Shown here one piece after another: positions 4,013 to 61,640 of a DNA stretch of 64,000 bases. Position 1 is the stretch's first letter. Every line of letters starts with the position of its first letter. The stretch covers positions 54,374,001-54,438,000 of the forward strand of contig OZ024749.1 in NCBI GenBank assembly GCA_964016885.1. Direction: 5' to 3'. This stretch comes from Eledone cirrhosa (Eukaryota). Below the pieces are notes generated by a model. The model did not search any database. It was given only the letters and a program-made list of their open reading frames with translations, and was not told where the DNA came from. The position numbers were made by a program, and so were the translations under genes.

Positions 4013-4437
4013 GTGTTGGTCTTGTTTGCTGGTGGTGGTGTTGGTGGTGTTGTTGGTGGTGGTGTTGGTGGTAGTGTTGGTGTTGTTGGTGGTGGTGTTG
4101 GTGGTGGTGTTGATGGTAGTGTTGGTGGTGGTGTTGGTGGTGTTCGTGTTGGTGGTGTTGATGGTAGTGTTGGTGTTGTTGGTGGTGGTGTTGTTGGTGT
4201 TGTTGGTGGTAGTGTTGGTGTTGTTGGTGGTGGTGTTGGTGGTGTTGATGGTAGTGTTGGTGTTGTTGGTGGTGGTGTTGTTGGTGTTGTTGGTGGTAGT
4301 GTTGGTGTTGTTGGTGGTGGTGGTGGTGTTGGTGTTGGTGGTGGTGGTGTTGGCGGTGGTGTTGGCGGTGGTGGTGTTGGCGGTGGTGTTGGCGGTGGTG
4401 GTGGTGGTGGTGTTGGCGGTGGTGTTGTTGGTGTTGT
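4013..4437. repeat. (GGT/GTT)n trinucleotide microsatellite
   Basis: Seen directly; source of the poly-Gly/Val and His/Gln pseudo-ORFs. Confidence 0.95.
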
Positions 4438-29879: not shown

Positions 29880-31750
29880 AAACAAAAAAACACAAAATCA
29901 CTGGCTCTACTGTTGGCCCTCTAATTGATGAAAATGGCACTCTTCAAGACAATGCTAAAACCATGGGTGAGATACTGCAGAAACAATACTGCTCTGTTTT
30001 CAGCAATCCTGATATGGCCGATCTGGGCTGTATCGGCGATGTTACTCCCCATTACACCTTATCGGACATAACGTTTGGCGCCCCTGATGTCTTGGCGGCA
30101 ATAAAGGAAATCAAGCATAATTCAGCAGTAGGTCCCGATAGGTTCCCTGCTTGTGTCTTGAAGGCGTGTCAACACCAACTTGCTTCTCCTCTTGCCAATC
30201 TGTGGCGGAACTCACTGGATGCTGGATATGTGCCAGAAAACCTTCTATCCCAGTCTGTTGTCCCAGTTTTCAAAAAGGGAAACAAATCCCTTGCCGTGAA
30301 TTACCGTCCAATCTCACTCACCTCTCATATCATTAAGGTATTTGAGCGAGTGGTGAGATCGCGAATGACCCACTTCCTTGAGAGTAACAATATGCTGAAC
30401 TCCAACCAGCATGGATTCCGTAATGGAAGGGATTGCCTGACGCAACTACTGCATCACTTTGATGACATTTTGAGAGCCTTGGGAGAGGGTTCCAACACTG
30501 ATGTTATCTACCTTGATTTCAGCAAGGCCTTTGACAGGGTTGATCATAACATTCTACTGAGAAAGCTGTCCAATATTGGTGTCACTGGAAAGCTGCTGCA
30601 GTGGATCAAGAGCTTCCTGTCAAACAGAACCCAACATGTTGTAGTTGAGGGAGTCAAATCAAGCCCAGCCAAAGTCAGTAGTGGAGTCCCACAAGGCACT
30701 GTGTTGGGCTCACTTCTCTTCATCATCTATATTAATGACATCACTGACATCATCAAACACAGCAACATTAAAATTTTCGCTGATGATTCCAAGCTCCAAA
30801 AGGTCATCAATGGCGTGGATGACCGGATAAGCCTTCAGTCAGACCTACTGGCTGTTACCCAATGGGCAGAAAAGAACAACATGTTACTGAACGAAGACAA
30901 ATTCGAACTGATCCACTTTGGAAAAGAGGATGCTCTGAAACTCCCGTACTCCCTTCCCTCCGGGGAAACTCTCGTGGCATCTAACAACATCAGAGACTTG
31001 GGAGTAACCGTGGACAGCAACATAAGCTGGACCACGCATATAAGCAGCAAAGTTTACATGGCCCGCAGAATGTGTTCCTGGATCCTCAGAACCTTCCAGT
31101 CGAGAGATTCCCGCACCATTATCCTTCTCTTCTCTACTTTCGCCCGACCACACCTTGAATACTGTTGTCCACTGTGGTCTCCCCACACGAAACAAAGTAT
31201 CATGAAACTTGAAGCTCCTCAAAGGGCAATCACGAAAAAGATAGATGGCATGTCAGACCTTGACTACTGGGGTCGATTAGAAAACCTGAAACTTTACTCA
31301 CTCCAACGTCGCCGTGAGCGTTATATTATCTGCATGATGTGGAAAATGTTCCATCATCACTGCCCAAATGATGTTGGCATCGCCTTCAAGATACACCCAA
31401 GGCTTGGGCCCCGTGCTATCCGTCCCATTCAAAAATCTAAATCGCAACTCATAACAACAATACGGCACAATTATTTCACCTCAATCGGCCCTGCTCTCTT
31501 CAACATCACACCAGGACACGTCAAAACAGAAACTGACCACACAAAATTCAAGAAGTCTTTGGACAAATTCCTCCAAGTAATCCCGGACAAACCACCCACA
31601 CCCGGATATGTCTCCGCAAACAGTAATTCTCTTCTCGAATGGGCCATGGTGCCCAAATCCTGAATTGAAAGACTTCGCCAGGTGGTGCTATTAAGTTAGA
31701 CATGGCCTGGGCCAATACTGGCCAAAACATTTCAAAGTTATTCAAAGTTA
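29880..31750 (+). mobile_element. 5'-truncated CR1-group (CR1/L2 clade) LINE inserted in (TA)n
   Basis: Frame is open from about 29882 (TKKHKITGSTVGPLIDENG...). Short 3'UTR ends in tandem ttcaaagtta x2. TA/CA microsatellite on both sides. Confidence 0.9.
29963..31663 (+). CDS. LINE ORF2 reverse transcriptase (truncated, endonuclease domain absent)
   Basis: RT motifs [53 protein letters not shown] and [10 protein letters not shown] with no stops or frameshifts. Confidence 0.92.
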
Positions 31751-40909: not shown

Positions 40910-41648
40910 TATACATACACACACACACATATATATATATTATACATACACACACACACATATATATTATACACACACACACGCAATTCAAATACAGGTA
41001 TGTACAACATTCCCACAGACATTAAATATGACATATGTAACACACACATAACCCAGTTGTCTACACTCACACATACATAATTCAAATACACACCCACACA
41101 TTTACACACAAGTAATCCAATTATCCACACACACACATACACACACACACGTACCCCAATTGCCCCCCCCCCCCTACACACAAACGTAATCCAGTTGTCC
41201 ACATACAACACAGGGGGGAAAAAAATCAATATAAACACACACACCCACACACACTCACAGACACACAGCGTCACACACTCACACACAGTCACACAGAGTC
41301 ACACACACTCACACACACAATCTCACACACACACACACACACAACAAAGTTTTGTGTCTGTTTCAACAGAAATATTAAAAAATATAAGAAAAGAAAAAAA
41401 GAAAAAAGAGGAAGAAAACTAAGGAAAACTAGAAAAAAGTGAAATGTAAGCCGTGAGTGGGGAATGGCACCTGAGATGACAGGTGAGACCAGGTGAGAGA
41501 GAGAGAGAGAGAGAGAATATAGTAATCCAGGTGAGGGAGAGAGTAGAGTCGTATAGTCCAGGTGAGAGAGAGAGAATATAGTAGTCCAAGTGAGAGAGAG
41601 AGAATATAGTAGTCCAGGTGAGAGAGAGAGATAGACAGAGAATATAGT

Positions 41649-44580
41649 AGTGTGGTCCAGGTGAGACTGGGGGAATAGTGTGGTCCAGGTGAGACTGGGG
41701 GAATATAATAGTGTGGTCCAGGTGAGACTGCGGGGATATAATAGTGTGGTCCAGGTGAGACTGGGGGAATAGTGTGGTCCAGGTGAGACTGCGGGAATAT
41801 AATAGTGTGGTCCAGGTGAGACTGGGGGAATAGTGTGGTCCAGGTGAGACTGGGGAAATATAATAGTGTGGTCCAGGTGAGACCGGGGGAATAGTGTGGT
41901 CCAGGTGAGACTGGGGGAATAGTGTGGTCCAGGTGAGACTGGGGGAATATAATAGTGTGGTCCAGGTGAGACCGGGGGAATAGTGTGGTCCAGGTGAGAC
42001 TGGGGGAATATAATAGTGTGGTCCAGGTGAGACCGGGGGAATAGTGTGGTCCAGGTGAGACTGGGGGAATATAATAGTGTGGTCCAGGTGAGACCGGGGG
42101 AATAGTGTGGTCCAGGTGTGACCGGGGGAATAGTGTGGTCCAGGTGAGACTGGGGGAATATAATAGTGTGGTCCAGGTGAGACCGGGGGAATAGTGTGGT
42201 CCAGGTGAGACTGGGGTAATAGTGTGGTCCAGGTGAGACCGGGGGAATAGTGTGGTCCAGGTGAGACTGGGGGAATATAATAGTGTGGTCCAGGTGAGAC
42301 CGGGGGAATAGTGTGGTCCAGGTGAGAGCGGGGGAATAGTGTGGTCCAGGTGAGACTGGGGGAATATAATAGTGTGGTCCAGGTGAGACCGGGGGAATAG
42401 TGTGGTCCAGGTGAGACTGGGGGAATAGTGTGGTCCAGGTGAGACTGCGGGAATATAATAGTGTGGTCCAGGTGAGACTGCGGGAATATAATAGTGTGGT
42501 CCAGGTGAGACCGGGGGAATAGTGTGGTCCAGGTGAGACTGGGGGAATAGTGTGGTCCAGGTGAGACTGGGGGAATAGTGTGGTCCAGGTGAGACCGGGG
42601 GAATAGTGTGGTCCAGGTGAGACTGCGGGAATATAATAGTGTGGTCCAGGTGAGACTGGGGGAATAGTGTGGTCCAGGTGAGACTGCGGGAATAGTGTGG
42701 TCCAGGTGAGACTGGGGGAATATAATAGTGTGGTCCAGGTGAGACCGGGGGAATAGTGTGGTCCAGGTGAGACTGCGGGAATAGTGTGGTCCAGGTGAGA
42801 CTGGGGGAATATAATAGTGTGGTCCAGGTGAGACCGGGGGAATAGTGTGGTCCAGGTGAGACTGGGGGAATAGTGTGGTCCAGGTGATACTGGGGGAATA
42901 TAATAGTGTGGTCCAGGTGAGACCGGGGGAATAGTGTGGTCCAGGTGAGACTGGGGGAATATAATAGTGTGGTCCAGGTGAGACCGGGGGAATAGTGTGG
43001 TCCAGGTGAGACTGGGGGAATATAATAGTGTGGTCCAGGTGAGACCGGGGGAATAGTGTGGTCCAGGTGAGACTGGGGTAATAGTGTGGTCCAGGTGAGA
43101 CCGGGGGAATAGTGTGGTCCAGGTGAGACTGGGGGAATATAATAGTGTGGTCCAGGTGAGACCGGGGGAATAGTGTGGTCCAGGTGAGACCGGGGGAATA
43201 GTGTGGTCCAGGTGAGACTGGGGGAATATAATAGTGTGGTCCAGGTGAGACCGGGGGAATAGTGTGGTCCAGGTGAGACCGGGGGAATAGTGTGGTCCAG
43301 GTGAGACTGGGGGAATATAATAGTGTGGTCCAGGTGAGACCGGGTGAATAGTGTGGTCCAGGTGAGACTGGGGGAATAGTGTGGTCCAGGTGAGACTGCG
43401 GGAATATAATAGTGTGGTCCAGGTGAGACTGCGGGAATATAATAGTGTGGTCCAGGTGAGACCGGGGGAATAGTGTGGTCCAGGTGAGACTGGGGGAATA
43501 GTGTGGTCCAGGTGAGACCGGGGGAATAGTGTGGTCCAGGTGAGACTGCGGGAATATAATAGTGTGGTCCAGGTGAGACTGGGGGAATAGTGTGGTCCAG
43601 GTGAGACTGCGGGAATATAATAGTGTGGTCCAGGTGAGACTGGGGGAATAGTGTGGTCCAGGTGAGACTGGGGGAATATAATAGTGTGGTCCAGGTGAGA
43701 CCGGGGGAATATAATAGTGTGGTTCAGGTGAGACCGGGGGAATAGTGTGGTCCAGGTGAGACTGCGGGAATATAATAGTGTGGTCCAGGTGAGACTGGGG
43801 GAATAGTGTGGTCCAGGTGAGACTGGGGGAATATAATAGTGTGGTCCAGGTGAGACTGGGGGAATAGTGTGGTCCAGGTGAGACTGGGGGAATATAATAG
43901 TGTGGTCCAGGTGAGACTGGGGGAATAGTGTGGTCCAGGTGAGACTGGGGGAATAGTGTGGTCCAGGTGAGACTGCGGGAATATAATAGTGTGGTCCAGG
44001 TGAGACTGCGGGAATATAATAGTGTGGTCCAGGTGAGACCGGGGGAATAGTGTGGTCCAGGTGAGACCGGGGGAATAGTGTGGTCCAGGTGAGACCGGGG
44101 GAATAGTGTGGTCCAGGTGAGACTGCGGGAATATAATAGTGTGGTCCAGGTGAGACTGGGGGAATAGTGTGGTCCAGGTGAGACTGCGGGAATATAATAG
44201 TGTGGTCCAGGTGAGACTGGGGGAATAGTGTGGTCCAGGTGAGACTGGGGGAATATAATAGTGTGGTCCAGGTGAGACCGGGGGAATATAATAGTGTGGT
44301 CCAGGTGAGACCGGGGGAATAGTGTGGTCCAGGTGAGACTGCGGGAATATAATAGTGTGGTCCAGGTGAGACTGGGGGAATATAATAGTGTGGTCCAGGT
44401 GAGACTGGGGGAATAGTGTGGTCCAGGTGAGACTGGGGGAATATAATAGTGTGGTCCAGGTGAGACTGGGGGAATAGTGTGGTCCAGGTGAGACTGGGGG
44501 AATAGTGTGGTCCAGGTGAGACTGGGGGAATAGTGTGGTCCAGGTGAGACTGCGGGAATATAATAGTGTGGTCCAGGTGA
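41649..44580. repeat. 28/33-bp minisatellite, roughly 95 units
   Basis: Unit agtgtggtccaggtgagac(t/c)g(g/c)gggaat with optional ataat. Degenerate (GA)n-containing monomers flank it at 41480-41648 and 44580-45020. Confidence 0.97.
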
Positions 44581-52182: not shown

Positions 52183-52237
<55 letters not shown>

Positions 52238-52473
52238 AGTATGCATGTATACGTACATACATATATGTATACAGACGTACAGTAGCATGCACATATATAT
52301 ATATATATACACATATATATACATATGCATACAGGTACACATACATATATGCACGTATCAGTTTAGCGGCGCTAACGTCGCTTTGTTCGTTTGTAAACAA
52401 ACTGAACAGCCTGAATTTATGCCATACGGTGTTAAGGCAACCACGTCACCTTTTTGTTCAACACTGACACAGG

Positions 52474-52518
52474 AACGATGTACTAGTTTCAAGCTTGTTA
52501 GCTATCATCAGCACCGTT
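52474..52518 (-). ncRNA. Type I hammerhead ribozyme motif, copy 1
   Basis: Minus strand AACGGTG-CTGATGA-T-AGCT-AACA-AGCT-T-GAAA-C-TA-GTA^-CATCGTT. Confidence 0.8.
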
Positions 52519-52939
52519 TACCCATCTGCCAGATAGTTGAACGTTCGAAAGTATATACTTTCCTTATGAAAATTAACGGCTGAGCAGCCTAATTTGCATA
52601 TTGAGTGAGTTAAATCGGTCAGGCATACCGAAAACGATAAATTGAAACAAAATGAAAACGAAATTTCATTTCTCACTCTTAGTATGGCACTTACTTAAAT
52701 GTAAGTATGCATGTATACGTACATACATATATGTATACAGACGTACAGTAGCATGCACATATATATATATATATACACATATATATACATATGCATACAG
52801 GTACACATACATATATGCACGTATCAGTTTAGCGGCGCTAACGTCGCTTTGTTCGTTTGTAAACAAACTGAACAGCCTGAATTTATGCCATACGGTGTTA
52901 AGGCAACCACGTCACCTTTTTGTTCAACACTGACACAGG

Positions 52940-52984
52940 AACGATGTACTAGTTTCAAGCTTGTTAGCTATCATCAGCACCGTT
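52940..52984 (-). ncRNA. Type I hammerhead ribozyme motif, copy 2
   Basis: Identical motif, 466 bp further. Confidence 0.8.
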
Positions 52985-53407
52985 TACCCATCTGCCAGAT
53001 AGTTGAACGTTCGAAAGTATATACTTTCCTTATGAAAATTAACGGCTGAGCAGCCTAATTTGCATATTGAGTGAGTTAAATCGGTCAGGCATACCGAAAA
53101 CGATAAATTGAAACAAAATGAAAACGAAATTTCATTTCTCACTCTTAGTATGGCACTTACTTAAATGTAAGTATGCATGTATACGTACATACATATATGT
53201 ATACAGACGTACAGTAGCATGCACATATATATATATATATATACACATATATATACATATGCATACAGGTACACATACATATATGCACGTATCAGTTTAG
53301 CGGCGCTAACGTCGCTTTGTTCGTTTGTAAACAAACTGAACAGCCTGAATTTATGCCATACGGTGTTAAGGCAACCACGTCACCTTTTTGTTCAACACTG
53401 ACACAGG

Positions 53408-53452
53408 AACGATGTACTAGTTTCAAGCTTGTTAGCTATCATCAGCACCGTT
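53408..53452 (-). ncRNA. Type I hammerhead ribozyme motif, copy 3
   Basis: Identical motif, 468 bp further. Confidence 0.8.
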
Positions 53453-53873
53453 TACCCATCTGCCAGATAGTTGAACGTTCGAAAGTATATACTTTCCTTA
53501 TGAAAATTAACGGCTGAGCAGCCTAATTTGCATATTGAGTGAGTTAAATCGGTCAGGCATACCGAAAACGATAAATTGAAACAAAATGAAAACGAAATTT
53601 CATTTCTCACTCTTAGTATGGCACTTACTTAAATGTAAGTATGCATGTATACGTACATACATATATGTATACAGACGTACAGTAGCATGCACATATATAT
53701 ATATATATACACATATATATACATATGCATACAGGTACACATACATATATGCACGTATCAGTTTAGCGGCGCTAACGTCGCTTTGTTCGTTTGTAAACAA
53801 ACTGAACAGCCTGAATTTATGCCATACGGTGTTAAGGCAACCACGTCACCTTTTTGTTCAACACTGACACAGG

Positions 53874-53918
53874 AACGATGTACTAGTTTCAAGCTTGTTA
53901 GCTATCATCAGCACCGTT
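53874..53918 (-). ncRNA. Type I hammerhead ribozyme motif, copy 4
   Basis: Identical motif, 466 bp further. Confidence 0.8.
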
Positions 53919-54339
53919 TACCCATCTGCCAGATAGTTGAACGTTCGAAAGTATATACTTTCCTTATGAAAATTAACGGCTGAGCAGCCTAATTTGCATA
54001 TTGAGTGAGTTAAATCGGTCAGGCATACCGAAAACGATAAATTGAAACAAAATGAAAACGAAATTTCATTTCTCACTCTTAGTATGGCACTTACTTAAAT
54101 GTAAGTATGCATGTATACGTACATACATATATGTATACAGACGTACAGTAGCATGCACATATATATATATATATACACATATATATACATATGCATACAG
54201 GTACACATACATATATGCACGTATCAGTTTAGCGGCGCTAACGTCGCTTTGTTCGTTTGTAAACAAACTGAACAGCCTGAATTTATGCCATACGGTGTTA
54301 AGGCAACCACGTCACCTTTTTGTTCAACACTGACACAGG

Positions 54340-54384
54340 AACGATGTACTAGTTTCAAGCTTGTTAGCTATCATCAGCACCGTT
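54340..54384 (-). ncRNA. Type I hammerhead ribozyme motif, copy 5
   Basis: Identical motif, 466 bp further. Confidence 0.8.
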
Positions 54385-54574
54385 TACCCATCTGCCAGAT
54401 AGTTGAACGTTCGAAAGTATATACTTTCCTTATGAAAATTAACGGCTGAGCAGCCTAATTTGCATATTGAGTGAGTTAAATCGGTCAGGCATACCGAAAA
54501 CGATAAATTGAAACAAAATGAAAACGAAATTTCATTTCTCACTCTTAGTATGGCACTTACTTAAATGTAAGTAT

Positions 54575-54618
54575 ACGGTGCTGATGATAGCTAACAAGCT
54601 TGAAACTAGTACATCGTT
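54575..54618 (+). ncRNA. Type I hammerhead ribozyme motif, copy 6 (at the inversion junction; lacks the extended 5' stem)
   Basis: ACGGTG-CTGATGA(54581-87)-TAGCTAACAAGCTT-GAAA(54602-05)-CTAGTA^(54611)-CATCGTT. Confidence 0.78.
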
Positions 54619-55039
54619 CCTGTGTCAGTGTTGAACAAAAAGGTGACGTGGTTGCCTTAACACCGTATGGCATAAATTCAGGCTGTTCAGTTTGTTTACA
54701 AACGAACAAAGCGACGTTAGCGCCGCTAAACTGATACGTGCATATATGTATGTGTACCTGTATGCATATGTATATATATGTGTATATATATATATATATG
54801 TGCATGCTACTGTACGTCTGTATACATATATGTATGTACGTATACATGCATACTTACATTTAAGTAAGTGCCATACTAAGAGTGAGAAATGAAATTTCGT
54901 TTTCATTTTGTTTCAATTTATCGTTTTCGGTATGCCTGACCGATTTAACTCACTCAATATGCAAATTAGGCTGCTCAGCCGTTAATTTTCATAAGGAAAG
55001 TATATACTTTCGAACGTTCAACTATCTGGCAGATGGGTA

Positions 55040-55084
55040 AACGGTGCTGATGATAGCTAACAAGCTTGAAACTAGTACATCGTT
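55040..55084 (+). ncRNA. Type I hammerhead ribozyme motif, copy 7
   Basis: Complete motif with the extended stem I flanks. Confidence 0.8.
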
Positions 55085-55505
55085 CCTGTGTCAGTGTTGA
55101 ACAAAAAGGTGACGTGGTTGCCTTAACACCGTATGGCATAAATTCAGGCTGTTCAGTTTGTTTACAAACGAACAAAGCGACGTTAGCGCCGCTAAACTGA
55201 TACGTGCATATATGTATGTGTACCTGTATGCATATGTATATATATGTGTATATATATATATATATGTGCATGCTACTGTACGTCTGTATACATATATGTA
55301 TGTACGTATACATGCATACTTACATTTAAGTAAGTGCCATACTAAGAGTGAGAAATGAAATTTCGTTTTCATTTTGTTTCAATTTATCGTTTTCGGTATG
55401 CCTGACCGATTTAACTCACTCAATATGCAAATTAGGCTGCTCAGCCGTTAATTTTCATAAGGAAAGTATATACTTTCGAACGTTCAACTATCTGGCAGAT
55501 GGGTA

Positions 55506-55550
55506 AACGGTGCTGATGATAGCTAACAAGCTTGAAACTAGTACATCGTT
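55506..55550 (+). ncRNA. Type I hammerhead ribozyme motif, copy 8
   Basis: Complete motif, 466 bp further. Confidence 0.8.
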
Positions 55551-55847
55551 CCTGTGTCAGTGTTGAACAAAAAGGTGACGTGGTTGCCTTAACACCGTAT
55601 GGCATAAATTCAGGCTGTTCAGTTTGTTTACAAACGAACAAAGCGACGTTAGCGCCGCTAAACTGATACGTGCATATATGTATGTGTACCTGTATGCATA
55701 TGTATATATATGTGTATATATATATATATATGTGCATGCTACTGTACGTCTGTATACATATATGTATGTACGTATACATGCATACTTACATTTAAGTAAG
55801 TGCCATACTAAGAGTGAGAAATGAAATTTCGTTTTCATTTTGTTTCA

Positions 55848-55887
<40 letters not shown>

Positions 55888-60473: not shown

Positions 60474-61407
60474 CTACGGCGGGTAAAATTCCCGAGATCC
60501 ATGGACGAGTTCTCTCCAGCGGTCTCTGTCCCTCATTATCGCTGCCATATCCTGCATCTCCAACAGACCAGTGTCTGTCCTTAGGGCATCAACATATGTT
60601 AACCTTGGTCTTCCTCTTCTAGTGTGTCCATGTAGGGGCTCCCAAAGGAGCACTGAGTGCAATGTCAACTCTGGATGTCGGTGAGCATGTCCAGCCAACC
60701 TCAGTCTCCTCTGTGTCACTTTTGAGCTGACTTTTGGGATGCTCCCATACAGCTCTGAGTTTTTCATCCTCAGTGTATACTGATTAATGTTCAGAGCCAT
60801 CCTCAGCATTCTCGTGTAGCACCTATCCACCATCTGAGTGAGTTTCTTGGTCAGTATCCAAGTCTCAGACCCATACAGCAGCACAGACTCCACTACAGCA
60901 ATGAAGAGGCGGATTTTCAGGTCTCTACGAAGGTCCGACTTCCACACCGATCTCAAGCTGTGGCACGCCGCCCAGGCCTTGCTCTTCCTCTCAACCACAT
61001 CATCCTCCGTATTCCCAATCTTTGCTCCCAAATACAGGAAGTCCTCAACCAATTCCAGCGGCTTCCCGCCTACATTAGTGATCCCCTCTGGCTTCTCAAC
61101 ATTCTCTACCAGATATTTTGTTTTAGTCTCATTCATTCTCAGCCCCACACTCATCGACACAGTCTCAACCTCCCGCATCAAATCCTCTGTCACCTTCACT
61201 GTATTTGTCACCAAAACTACACCTGATGGGATGACAGAGTTCTTTGAGATACTGGCTGGAGTGCTCCAGGGAGATACATTGGCTCCCTACCTTTTTATCA
61301 TCGTAGTGGACTATTATATGCGCCTTGCACTGGAGAAACACCAGGACTCTGGCTTTACTGTAGCACCGGCTCAGAGCAGGAGAGTTGGGGCGAAAAAGGT
61401 ATCGGAT
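60474..61407 (-). mobile_element. 5'-truncated RTE-clade LINE with an inverted 5' segment, inserted in (TA)n
   Basis: 60474-61214 (-) encodes the RT C-terminal half (GLRMNETKTK, FLYLG, ESVLLYGSETW, RRLRLAGH, RGRPRLTY). About 61215-61407 (+) encodes the preceding TPDG...GVLQGDTLAPYLF...KKVSD. The FADD motif expected between them is missing. Confidence 0.9.
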
Positions 61408-61458
61408 ATATATATATATATATATTGGAAAATGTGTGAGATCCTTGGTACAGTTAGG

Positions 61459-61640
61459 TATATTTGAAAAAAAGGAAAAGAATGACTTCACTTGTAGTTC
61501 TAAATAATTTGATATAGTTTTATAATATTATGAGTTGGTAGAACTACTAGTTCTACCAACTCATATTATATATTATAAAATTAGATCAAATTATTTAGAA
61601 CTACAAGTGAAGTCATTCTTTTCCTTTTTTTAAATATATA
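61459..61640. repeat. Near-perfect palindrome, arms about 85-90 bp
   Basis: aaaggaaaagaatgacttcacttgtagttctaaataatttgat...gagttggtagaacta-c-tagttctaccaactc...atcaaattatttagaactacaagtgaagtcattcttttccttt. Confidence 0.9.

Follow-up and report, generated by a model that had tools for sequence, protein, structure and literature searches.

Structure of the array in the window

The window, by which we mean the whole stretch of 64,000 nucleotides that was analyzed, belongs to a microsatellite-rich genome of 3.0 Gb and contains a tandem array of a 466-bp unit with a GC content of 35%. No stop-free frame of at least 150 aa runs across the array. The units form two arms that are joined at their RNA-sense 5' ends and that each run into (TA)n (Table 1), a layout that was put forward in the original prediction and that we confirm. 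In RNA sense, the left arm, or A arm, runs from unit position 276 at its 5' end to site A, unit position 285, at its 3' end. The right arm, or B arm, starts at unit position 1, which is the first base of hammerhead stem I, again as predicted, and has its 3' end at site B (unit position 347). The sequence ends in CTTACAT on the left and in CAATTTAT on the right, with (AT)n next to each.

No difference was seen among the core segments of the units, at 4335 positions compared within arms and 4674 compared between arms, and one spacer carries an additional TA. At the junction, an overlap of 4 nt appears only against the allele of another subfamily, and none against the array's own unit. The two flanks differ in sequence and the array is therefore not a fold-back chimera; a fold-back artefact was also rejected on account of the family-wide pattern described below. 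Among contigs of four runs, those of X2 and X5 contain the family and those of X1 and X3 gave no alignment. In contigs of X2, an independent run, the same two parts meet head to head at six other joints; no listed piece bridges 54574/54575. Near-identical sequence was also seen in runs filed under many organisms, which may represent close relatives, transfer or contamination; no RNA run was among those listed as containing it.

Table 1. Features of the array and of its (TA)n target, in window coordinates
Feature	Position	Strand	Basis or remark
Left half of the (TA)n target	52186..52232	.	Sequence
A arm, 2342 bp, 5.0 units of the 466-bp unit	52233..54574	-	
Hammerhead copies of the A arm	54341..54383, 53875-53917, 53409-53451, 52941-52983, 52475-52517	-	
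5'-to-5' junction	54574..54575	.	Blunt against the array's own unit, 0 nt shared
B arm, 1279 bp, 2.74 units of the 466-bp unit	54575..55853	+	
Type I hammerhead: stem I, CUGAUGA, stem II, GAAA, palindromic CUAG stem III	54575..54617	+	Sequence and folds
Other hammerhead copies of the B arm	55041-55083, 55507-55549	+	
AU-rich spacer of the unit, folds into a long hairpin	55200..55313	+	Main place of A>G in sister loci
Small hairpin, loop contains start site A	55318..55335	+	Fold shown for one unit; A-type ends
62-nt tail, site A to site B	55792..55853	+	Found only at the B-arm end
Right half of the (AT)n target	55854..55885	.	

The unit carries a predicted hammerhead ribozyme

The hammerhead core and stems are present in all eight copies in the window, stems I and II form in the folds, and for the copy at the start of the B arm the cut is predicted after 54611. 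A search of Rfam gave no match at the gathering score; below it, there was a weak match to HH9 (18.5 bits, E 0.086). In an older relative, stem I has a U-G pair in place of G-U. With its short tandem unit, a type I hammerhead in every unit, no coding capacity and low GC, the element fits a non-LTR retrozyme with predicted self-cleavage. On its expression as linear and circular RNA there is an indirect sign only, the strand-specific, periodic A>G marks of L108 and L167 described below. It resembles the non-LTR retrozymes of animals in having a non-coding tandem unit of a few hundred bp with low GC and one type I hammerhead each, in its thousands of copies, and in the occurrence of Penelope-like elements (PLEs) in the same genome. 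The units of known non-LTR retrozymes measure 150-450 bp (Cervera and de la Pena, 2020; PMC7229834) or 51-972 bp (Li et al., 2026; 10.64898/2026.07.22.740005).

Twin arms are the usual layout of the family

The ribozyme 30-mer of the window unit has 10,692 exact matches in the genome. As a consecutive sample, we took all 54 clusters from the first 100 matches (L031-L084); 40 stretches were added by subfamily or variant (L085-L124) and 11 by spacer variants (L167-L177). Selection by the ribozyme 30-mer is biased towards loci with at least one long arm. Tabulating end phases and inversions for other copies, the check proposed with the original prediction, gave divergent twins, with arms 5' to 5', in 36 of the 54 consecutive clusters. 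In 18 of the 54 a single arm is seen, and one cluster (L035) is convergent, consisting of a pair of different haplotypes. Twin geometry is the usual layout of the family and not a peculiarity of the window locus.

Most arms (63 of 100) are longer than one unit. Median lengths are 732 bp for A arms and 942 bp for B arms (n=50), with no difference between the two, and the lengths of A and B arms are uncorrelated (rho 0.06, n=50). The youngest loci have the longest arms, up to 15-16 units, suggesting that the length of an array is mostly there at birth. L177, which extends over at least 37 kb from about 12.27 Mb, is an old array of the family with fixed sense A>G changes, including one at the cleavage triplet, and with high unit-to-unit divergence at the DNA level. 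It is perhaps a dead-ribozyme array that has grown into a satellite.

The 3' ends fall at two fixed sites that are used in pairs

Throughout the family, 3' ends fall at two fixed sites, A (about 285, in a hairpin loop) and B (about 347), which are 62 nt apart. We scored the outer ends of 70 twin junctions from 93 stretches, window included; the far ends of L053 and L087 were taken from L104 and L084 and set by hand. The ends were clearly A+B at 51 junctions and probably A+B at a further 8, and no A+A or B+B pair was found. At the remaining 11 of 70, one end was unresolved, being interrupted, cut or ending in spacer. Six further twins were all A+B, and (TA)4 directly follows 77 of 81 B-type stops. 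The strict pairing of one A with one B suggests that one complex gives each DNA end one start site. In four cases (L071, L073, L085 and L124), the B arm measures merely 57-73 bp and stops at site A, as if a B-primed reverse transcriptase (RT) had met the A-primed cDNA on the same RNA; this hint is a weak one.

The two sites alter the picture given by the original prediction, in which the arms start and stop at differing phases of the unit: the 5' ends are indeed scattered (see below), but the 3' ends are fixed across the family. Priming wherever AT microhomology occurs does not agree with 3' ends confined to two sites. Fixed termini had also been named as a sign of a DNA transposon; the fixed 3' termini found here correspond instead to a Penelope-like tail. 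The family further shows several features of a PLE passenger, namely two 3' ends that bound a one-end tail, an inverted 5'-truncated copy and a (TA)n target.

The 5' ends are scattered and often joined by shared bases

The 136 5' ends at 68 junctions are spread nearly uniformly over the phases of the unit (chi-square p 0.16), those within the AT-rich spacer being placed approximately. Three of the 136, including the one in the window, lie within 5 nt of stem I, and two lie within 5 nt of the predicted cut, against 3.2 expected in each case. Thus, the start of the window's B arm at stem I is a matter of chance, and the proposed stalling of a cDNA at the ribozyme helix finds no echo in the family. 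For 25 junctions, comparison with the unit of the same locus was possible. Insertions of 3-7 letters are seen at 6 of them; the other 19 are free of inserted letters, and at 10 of the 19 the arms share at least 2 nt, against 17.7% expected (p 6e-4). At L037 and L049, the arms share their starting phase, which lies on a palindrome of the unit; such junctions are of the fold-back type.

Both arms share a haplotype, and periodic marks, probably of RNA editing, label some templates

The distance between the arms of a locus equals that within arms, and is mostly far below the median distance to other loci, which is mostly 4-7%. Between-arm distance versus distance to the nearest other locus was 0.28% versus 2.65% for L032, 0 versus 1.53% for L036 and 0 versus 0.80% for L037. 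The exceptions, L059, L067 and L043 for example, involve neighboring older copies or short overlaps. The length of the unit is also specific to the locus and equal in both arms (474 in L107 and 476 in L090, for example).

Two arrays, found by following variants rather than at random, carry marks that alternate from unit to unit. In the B arm of L108, which has 12 units, X and Y units alternate for 6 rounds, and all 12 scored shared differences between them are sense A>G, many in the AU hairpin. ADAR disfavors a 5' G neighbor; none of the A>G sites of L108 has one, although this by itself is not significant. All 6 genomic matches of the Y pattern lie inside L108. The A arm carries the X marks, and both arms begin at one and the same X|Y boundary. 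In the single arm of L167, with 8 units, P and Q alternate for 4 rounds, 11 of 11 core differences are A>G, and the P pattern is equally private (4 of 4 genome matches in L167). At a third locus, L120, A224G is present in the second unit from the 3' end in both arms. Because editing acts on single molecules and a private pattern returns every second unit, one dimeric molecule appears to have been read repeatedly, and a covalent circle is the simplest template for the periodicity of L108 and L167. As read from the sequence of these sister arrays, marks in a fixed cycle suggest that one circular RNA was copied round and round.

A bias towards sense A>G is also seen more widely. In 43 young loci, shared variants comprise 19 A>G and 2 T>C, with L108 supplying 12 of the 19 (7 versus 2 without it), and singletons are 12 versus 14. 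A palindromic GTAC in the spacer was found 178 times with A>G and 54 times with the mirror change, T>C, counts that large arrays inflate; at 5 of the loci listed the same match contains another A>G, and none of the 54 T>C matches contains another T>C. Some candidates for private marks were discarded: G91A (471 matches) and A109T (39) are lineage marks instead, and T516C, present in all units of L174 and L175, is also found in L176. Variants restricted to some of the units of an array (L084/L087, L088, L120 and L121) indicate that multimeric templates, template switches or later duplication at the DNA level also occur.

Both heavily edited arrays, L108 and L167, are dimers, and in L108 one edit lies inside stem II of the ribozyme of one unit. 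Editing may hinder cleavage, or dimers may be better substrates for ADAR.

Penelope-like elements in the same genome

The genome contains 10,594 GIY-YIG candidates, of which 150 were scored, and at PLE loci RT and GIY-YIG are found in long frames. Among 42 GIY-YIG loci (of at least 150), there was no PLE with a pLTR akin to the unit; the lone hit, L149, is an older retrozyme copy adjoining a PLE. One PLE, L165, is itself built as a twin, its two 3' ends lying about 48 nt from each other; RT and GIY-YIG domains were read in its family member L158. The family to which these belong (L165, L158, L164, L154 and L159) has an RT with a C-terminal GIY-YIG and its own type I hammerhead, and ends in (TA)n. 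A different PLE, L160, has long inverted arms.

Proposed two-ended priming on one RNA, and its alternatives

We put at about 0.75 the probability of our best explanation, taken as a whole. In this explanation, the RT-GIY-YIG protein of a PLE moves a non-autonomous retrozyme with a hammerhead, and the window array is one of its young insertions; an RT-endonuclease of this PLE-like kind uses the two ends of a (TA)n cut as primers on a single RNA, which in at least some cases is an ADAR-edited circle subject to rolling-circle reverse transcription. The geometry, the A+B pairing, the scattered 5' ends, the haplotype common to both arms and the periodic, strand-specific A>G are all seen in the sequence. 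Cleavage and ligation, ADAR as the editor, a dimeric enzyme and, for the window array, a circle as the template are inferred. RNA from a source array would cleave itself into monomers or dimers, which would be ligated into circles. The PLE protein, probably as a dimer, would bind the RNA at its tail and cut both strands of (TA)n. Two cDNAs would then be begun on the same RNA, with one DNA end priming at site A and its partner 62 nt further 3', at site B. How far each RT runs would be random; on a circle it would go round many times, by strand displacement. The two cDNA 3' ends would be end-joined, often via 1-4 shared bases, leaving the arms 5' to 5'. The original prediction, that both ends of a (TA)n break primed reverse transcription for several rounds on a circular or multimeric RNA, is supported by the ends of the family, the shared haplotypes and the periodicity of the edits. 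The stricter proposal, that the arrays are fossils of single RNA molecules, in which a dimeric PLE protein engaged each DNA end at one start site of one ribozyme-made circle, both RTs rolled and ADAR edits became heritable, periodic DNA, we consider rather probable, if with less assurance.

A possible though less probable course is that the PLE protein primes from both ends on a linear, multimeric read-through RNA, and that arm length is inherited or results from later unequal crossing-over. The window array has no marker that separates a monomer circle from a uniform linear multimer, and both fit it equally. Several loci point to linear multimers: both arms of L084/L087 repeat, with no strict period, the succession of short spacer, plain unit and C210T unit, L088 has six A324G units followed by three plain ones, and L121 has G134A in two neighbors. 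The old array L177, with its changed cleavage site and its divergence at the DNA level, agrees with this course as well, as does unprocessed RNA being the main substrate in vitro (PMC11167929). A linear multimer, however, would be edited separately in each unit and cannot repeat a private pattern every second unit for 4-6 rounds, as in L108 and L167. Had misalignment by one unit followed insertion, runs of XX or YY should be seen, and there are none; it is also the youngest loci that carry the longest arms. We think it improbable that copying was pseudo-circular, with the RT jumping from the 5' end back to the 3' end of one linear monomer or dimer, in an R2-like or telomerase-like manner and with no covalent circle. 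This would yield the same periodic marks, but end jumps usually leave indels and a pile-up of 5' ends. In the young cores examined, there are no indels at the predicted cleavage site, and only the two 5' ends mentioned above fall there. The RTs of PLEs are the sister group of telomerase RT (PMC8557442), which lends such jumps some plausibility; against them, circles of RNAs of this kind are abundant in other animals (PMC7229834).

That the two arms stem from two different RNAs captured independently at the break ends is very unlikely, and L108 already largely refutes it. The uncorrelated lengths of A and B arms would be in keeping with two RNAs, and one cell may express one dominant variant. 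Yet none of the 59 callable twins is A+A or B+B, edit marks private to L108 are found in both arms and in register, and the mark of L120 is in register too. Least probable of all is an origin at the DNA level, as a DNA transposon, a Helitron-like satellite or an inverted tandem array, or else an artefact of assembly. The outer ends are indeed fixed and inverted, and no listed contig spans the window junction. Against this stand the constant 62-nt offset between the ends, a junction phase that differs at every locus, unique flanks, the strand bias of A>G and the six head-to-head joints in contigs of the independent run X2. A DNA transposon or Helitron with symmetric fixed termini and a fixed body was rejected on the same grounds, since the ends differ by 62 nt and the point of inversion varies with the locus.

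Relation to known systems

In L1 twin priming, both target strands prime cDNA on one RNA, and the arms cover adjacent parts of a linear RNA. Priming of the two strands on one RNA, the joining of cDNA 3' ends by microhomology and the 5'-to-5' arms are shared with the family described here. Unlike L1, however, the family has no poly(A) and has fixed internal starts, and both arms copy the same sequence repeatedly. The array is not a twin-priming product of the L1 kind: the arms overlap in sequence, and only the four short B arms mentioned above stop at site A. L1 is a fitting analogy for priming from two ends, though of a different class. A circular RNA also templates genomic insertion in circRNA-derived pseudogenes, for which back-spliced exons serve as the circular template and L1 performs the insertion; the present family differs from these in its presumed ribozyme-made circles, its PLE-type ends and its several rounds.

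There is also a likeness to GIY-YIG PLEs. These occur with an inverted 5'-truncated copy, a tail of 30-40 bp that is often one-ended, and (TA)n targets, by a mechanism called undefined (Craig, 2021; PMC8557442). In the work of Frangieh (2024; PMC11167929), a PLE protein with a predicted dimeric structure cleaves AT-rich DNA on both strands and extends each of them, and reverse transcription begins at two neighboring internal sites, which bound the tail. Two results of that study run against our explanation: ribozyme cleavage is unneeded for insertion in vitro, and the start site does not differ between strands. The family shares with these elements partial tandems, the inverted 5'-truncated copy, the one-ended tail, (TA)n targets without a visible target-site duplication (which is unreadable within a (TA)n target) and two internal RT starts in structured RNA. 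Unlike them, it has no ORF, a tail of 62 nt rather than 30-40, and arms of up to 16 units. The strict pairing of one A with one B and the evidence for a same-molecule origin are not stated for PLEs in the available text of these two reports (PMC8557442, PMC11167929).

For retrozymes, it has been proposed that tandem cDNA arises from a primed circle, with PLEs named as candidates (Cervera and de la Pena, 2020; PMC7229834). Retrozymes have since been linked to pLTRs, with local amplification favored (Li et al., 2026; 10.64898/2026.07.22.740005). Neither of these reports, as far as the accessible text goes, describes twin arms, fixed A/B ends or periodic dimers marked by edits; the text of PMC7229834 has no match for inverted, rolling, target site or microsatellite. 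Our search of the literature, which took in few subscription journals, turned up no retrozyme arrays with twin arms, paired A and B ends or periodic edits.

How tandem repeats with hammerheads spread has been a question since the work on the newt satellite, and the step from circle to tandem cDNA remains a proposal. The family offers thousands of young insertions in which A/B starts can be counted in each twin and edit marks label single templates. If the stricter proposal of single RNA molecules holds, the PLE tail and the inverted arms would be explained as one reaction, rolling-circle reverse transcription of retrozyme circles would have direct proof in vivo, and RNA editing would be a source of variants and of higher-order repeats in new satellites. 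The prediction for the reaction in vitro is that a PLE protein, supplied with circular RNA, would make head-to-head multimers that end once at A and once at B. The family also points towards a natural enzyme, an RT capable of processive copying of circular RNA into a genome.

Neighboring repeats

Other repeats were noted around arrays of the family. At the right end of L034, a short stretch of the left flank is found again in inverted orientation, with a TA run on either side. Pieces of a second repeat family are found repeatedly in the (TA)n tracts that flank L038, L041 and L083, and at L038 such a piece is directly joined to the 5' end of an arm. The window itself contains, by eye, LINE-type reverse-transcriptase-like frames at 29882-31663 (minus strand) and 60474-61467, which are unrelated to the array, and a tandem array with subunits of 28/33 bp at 41648-44560.
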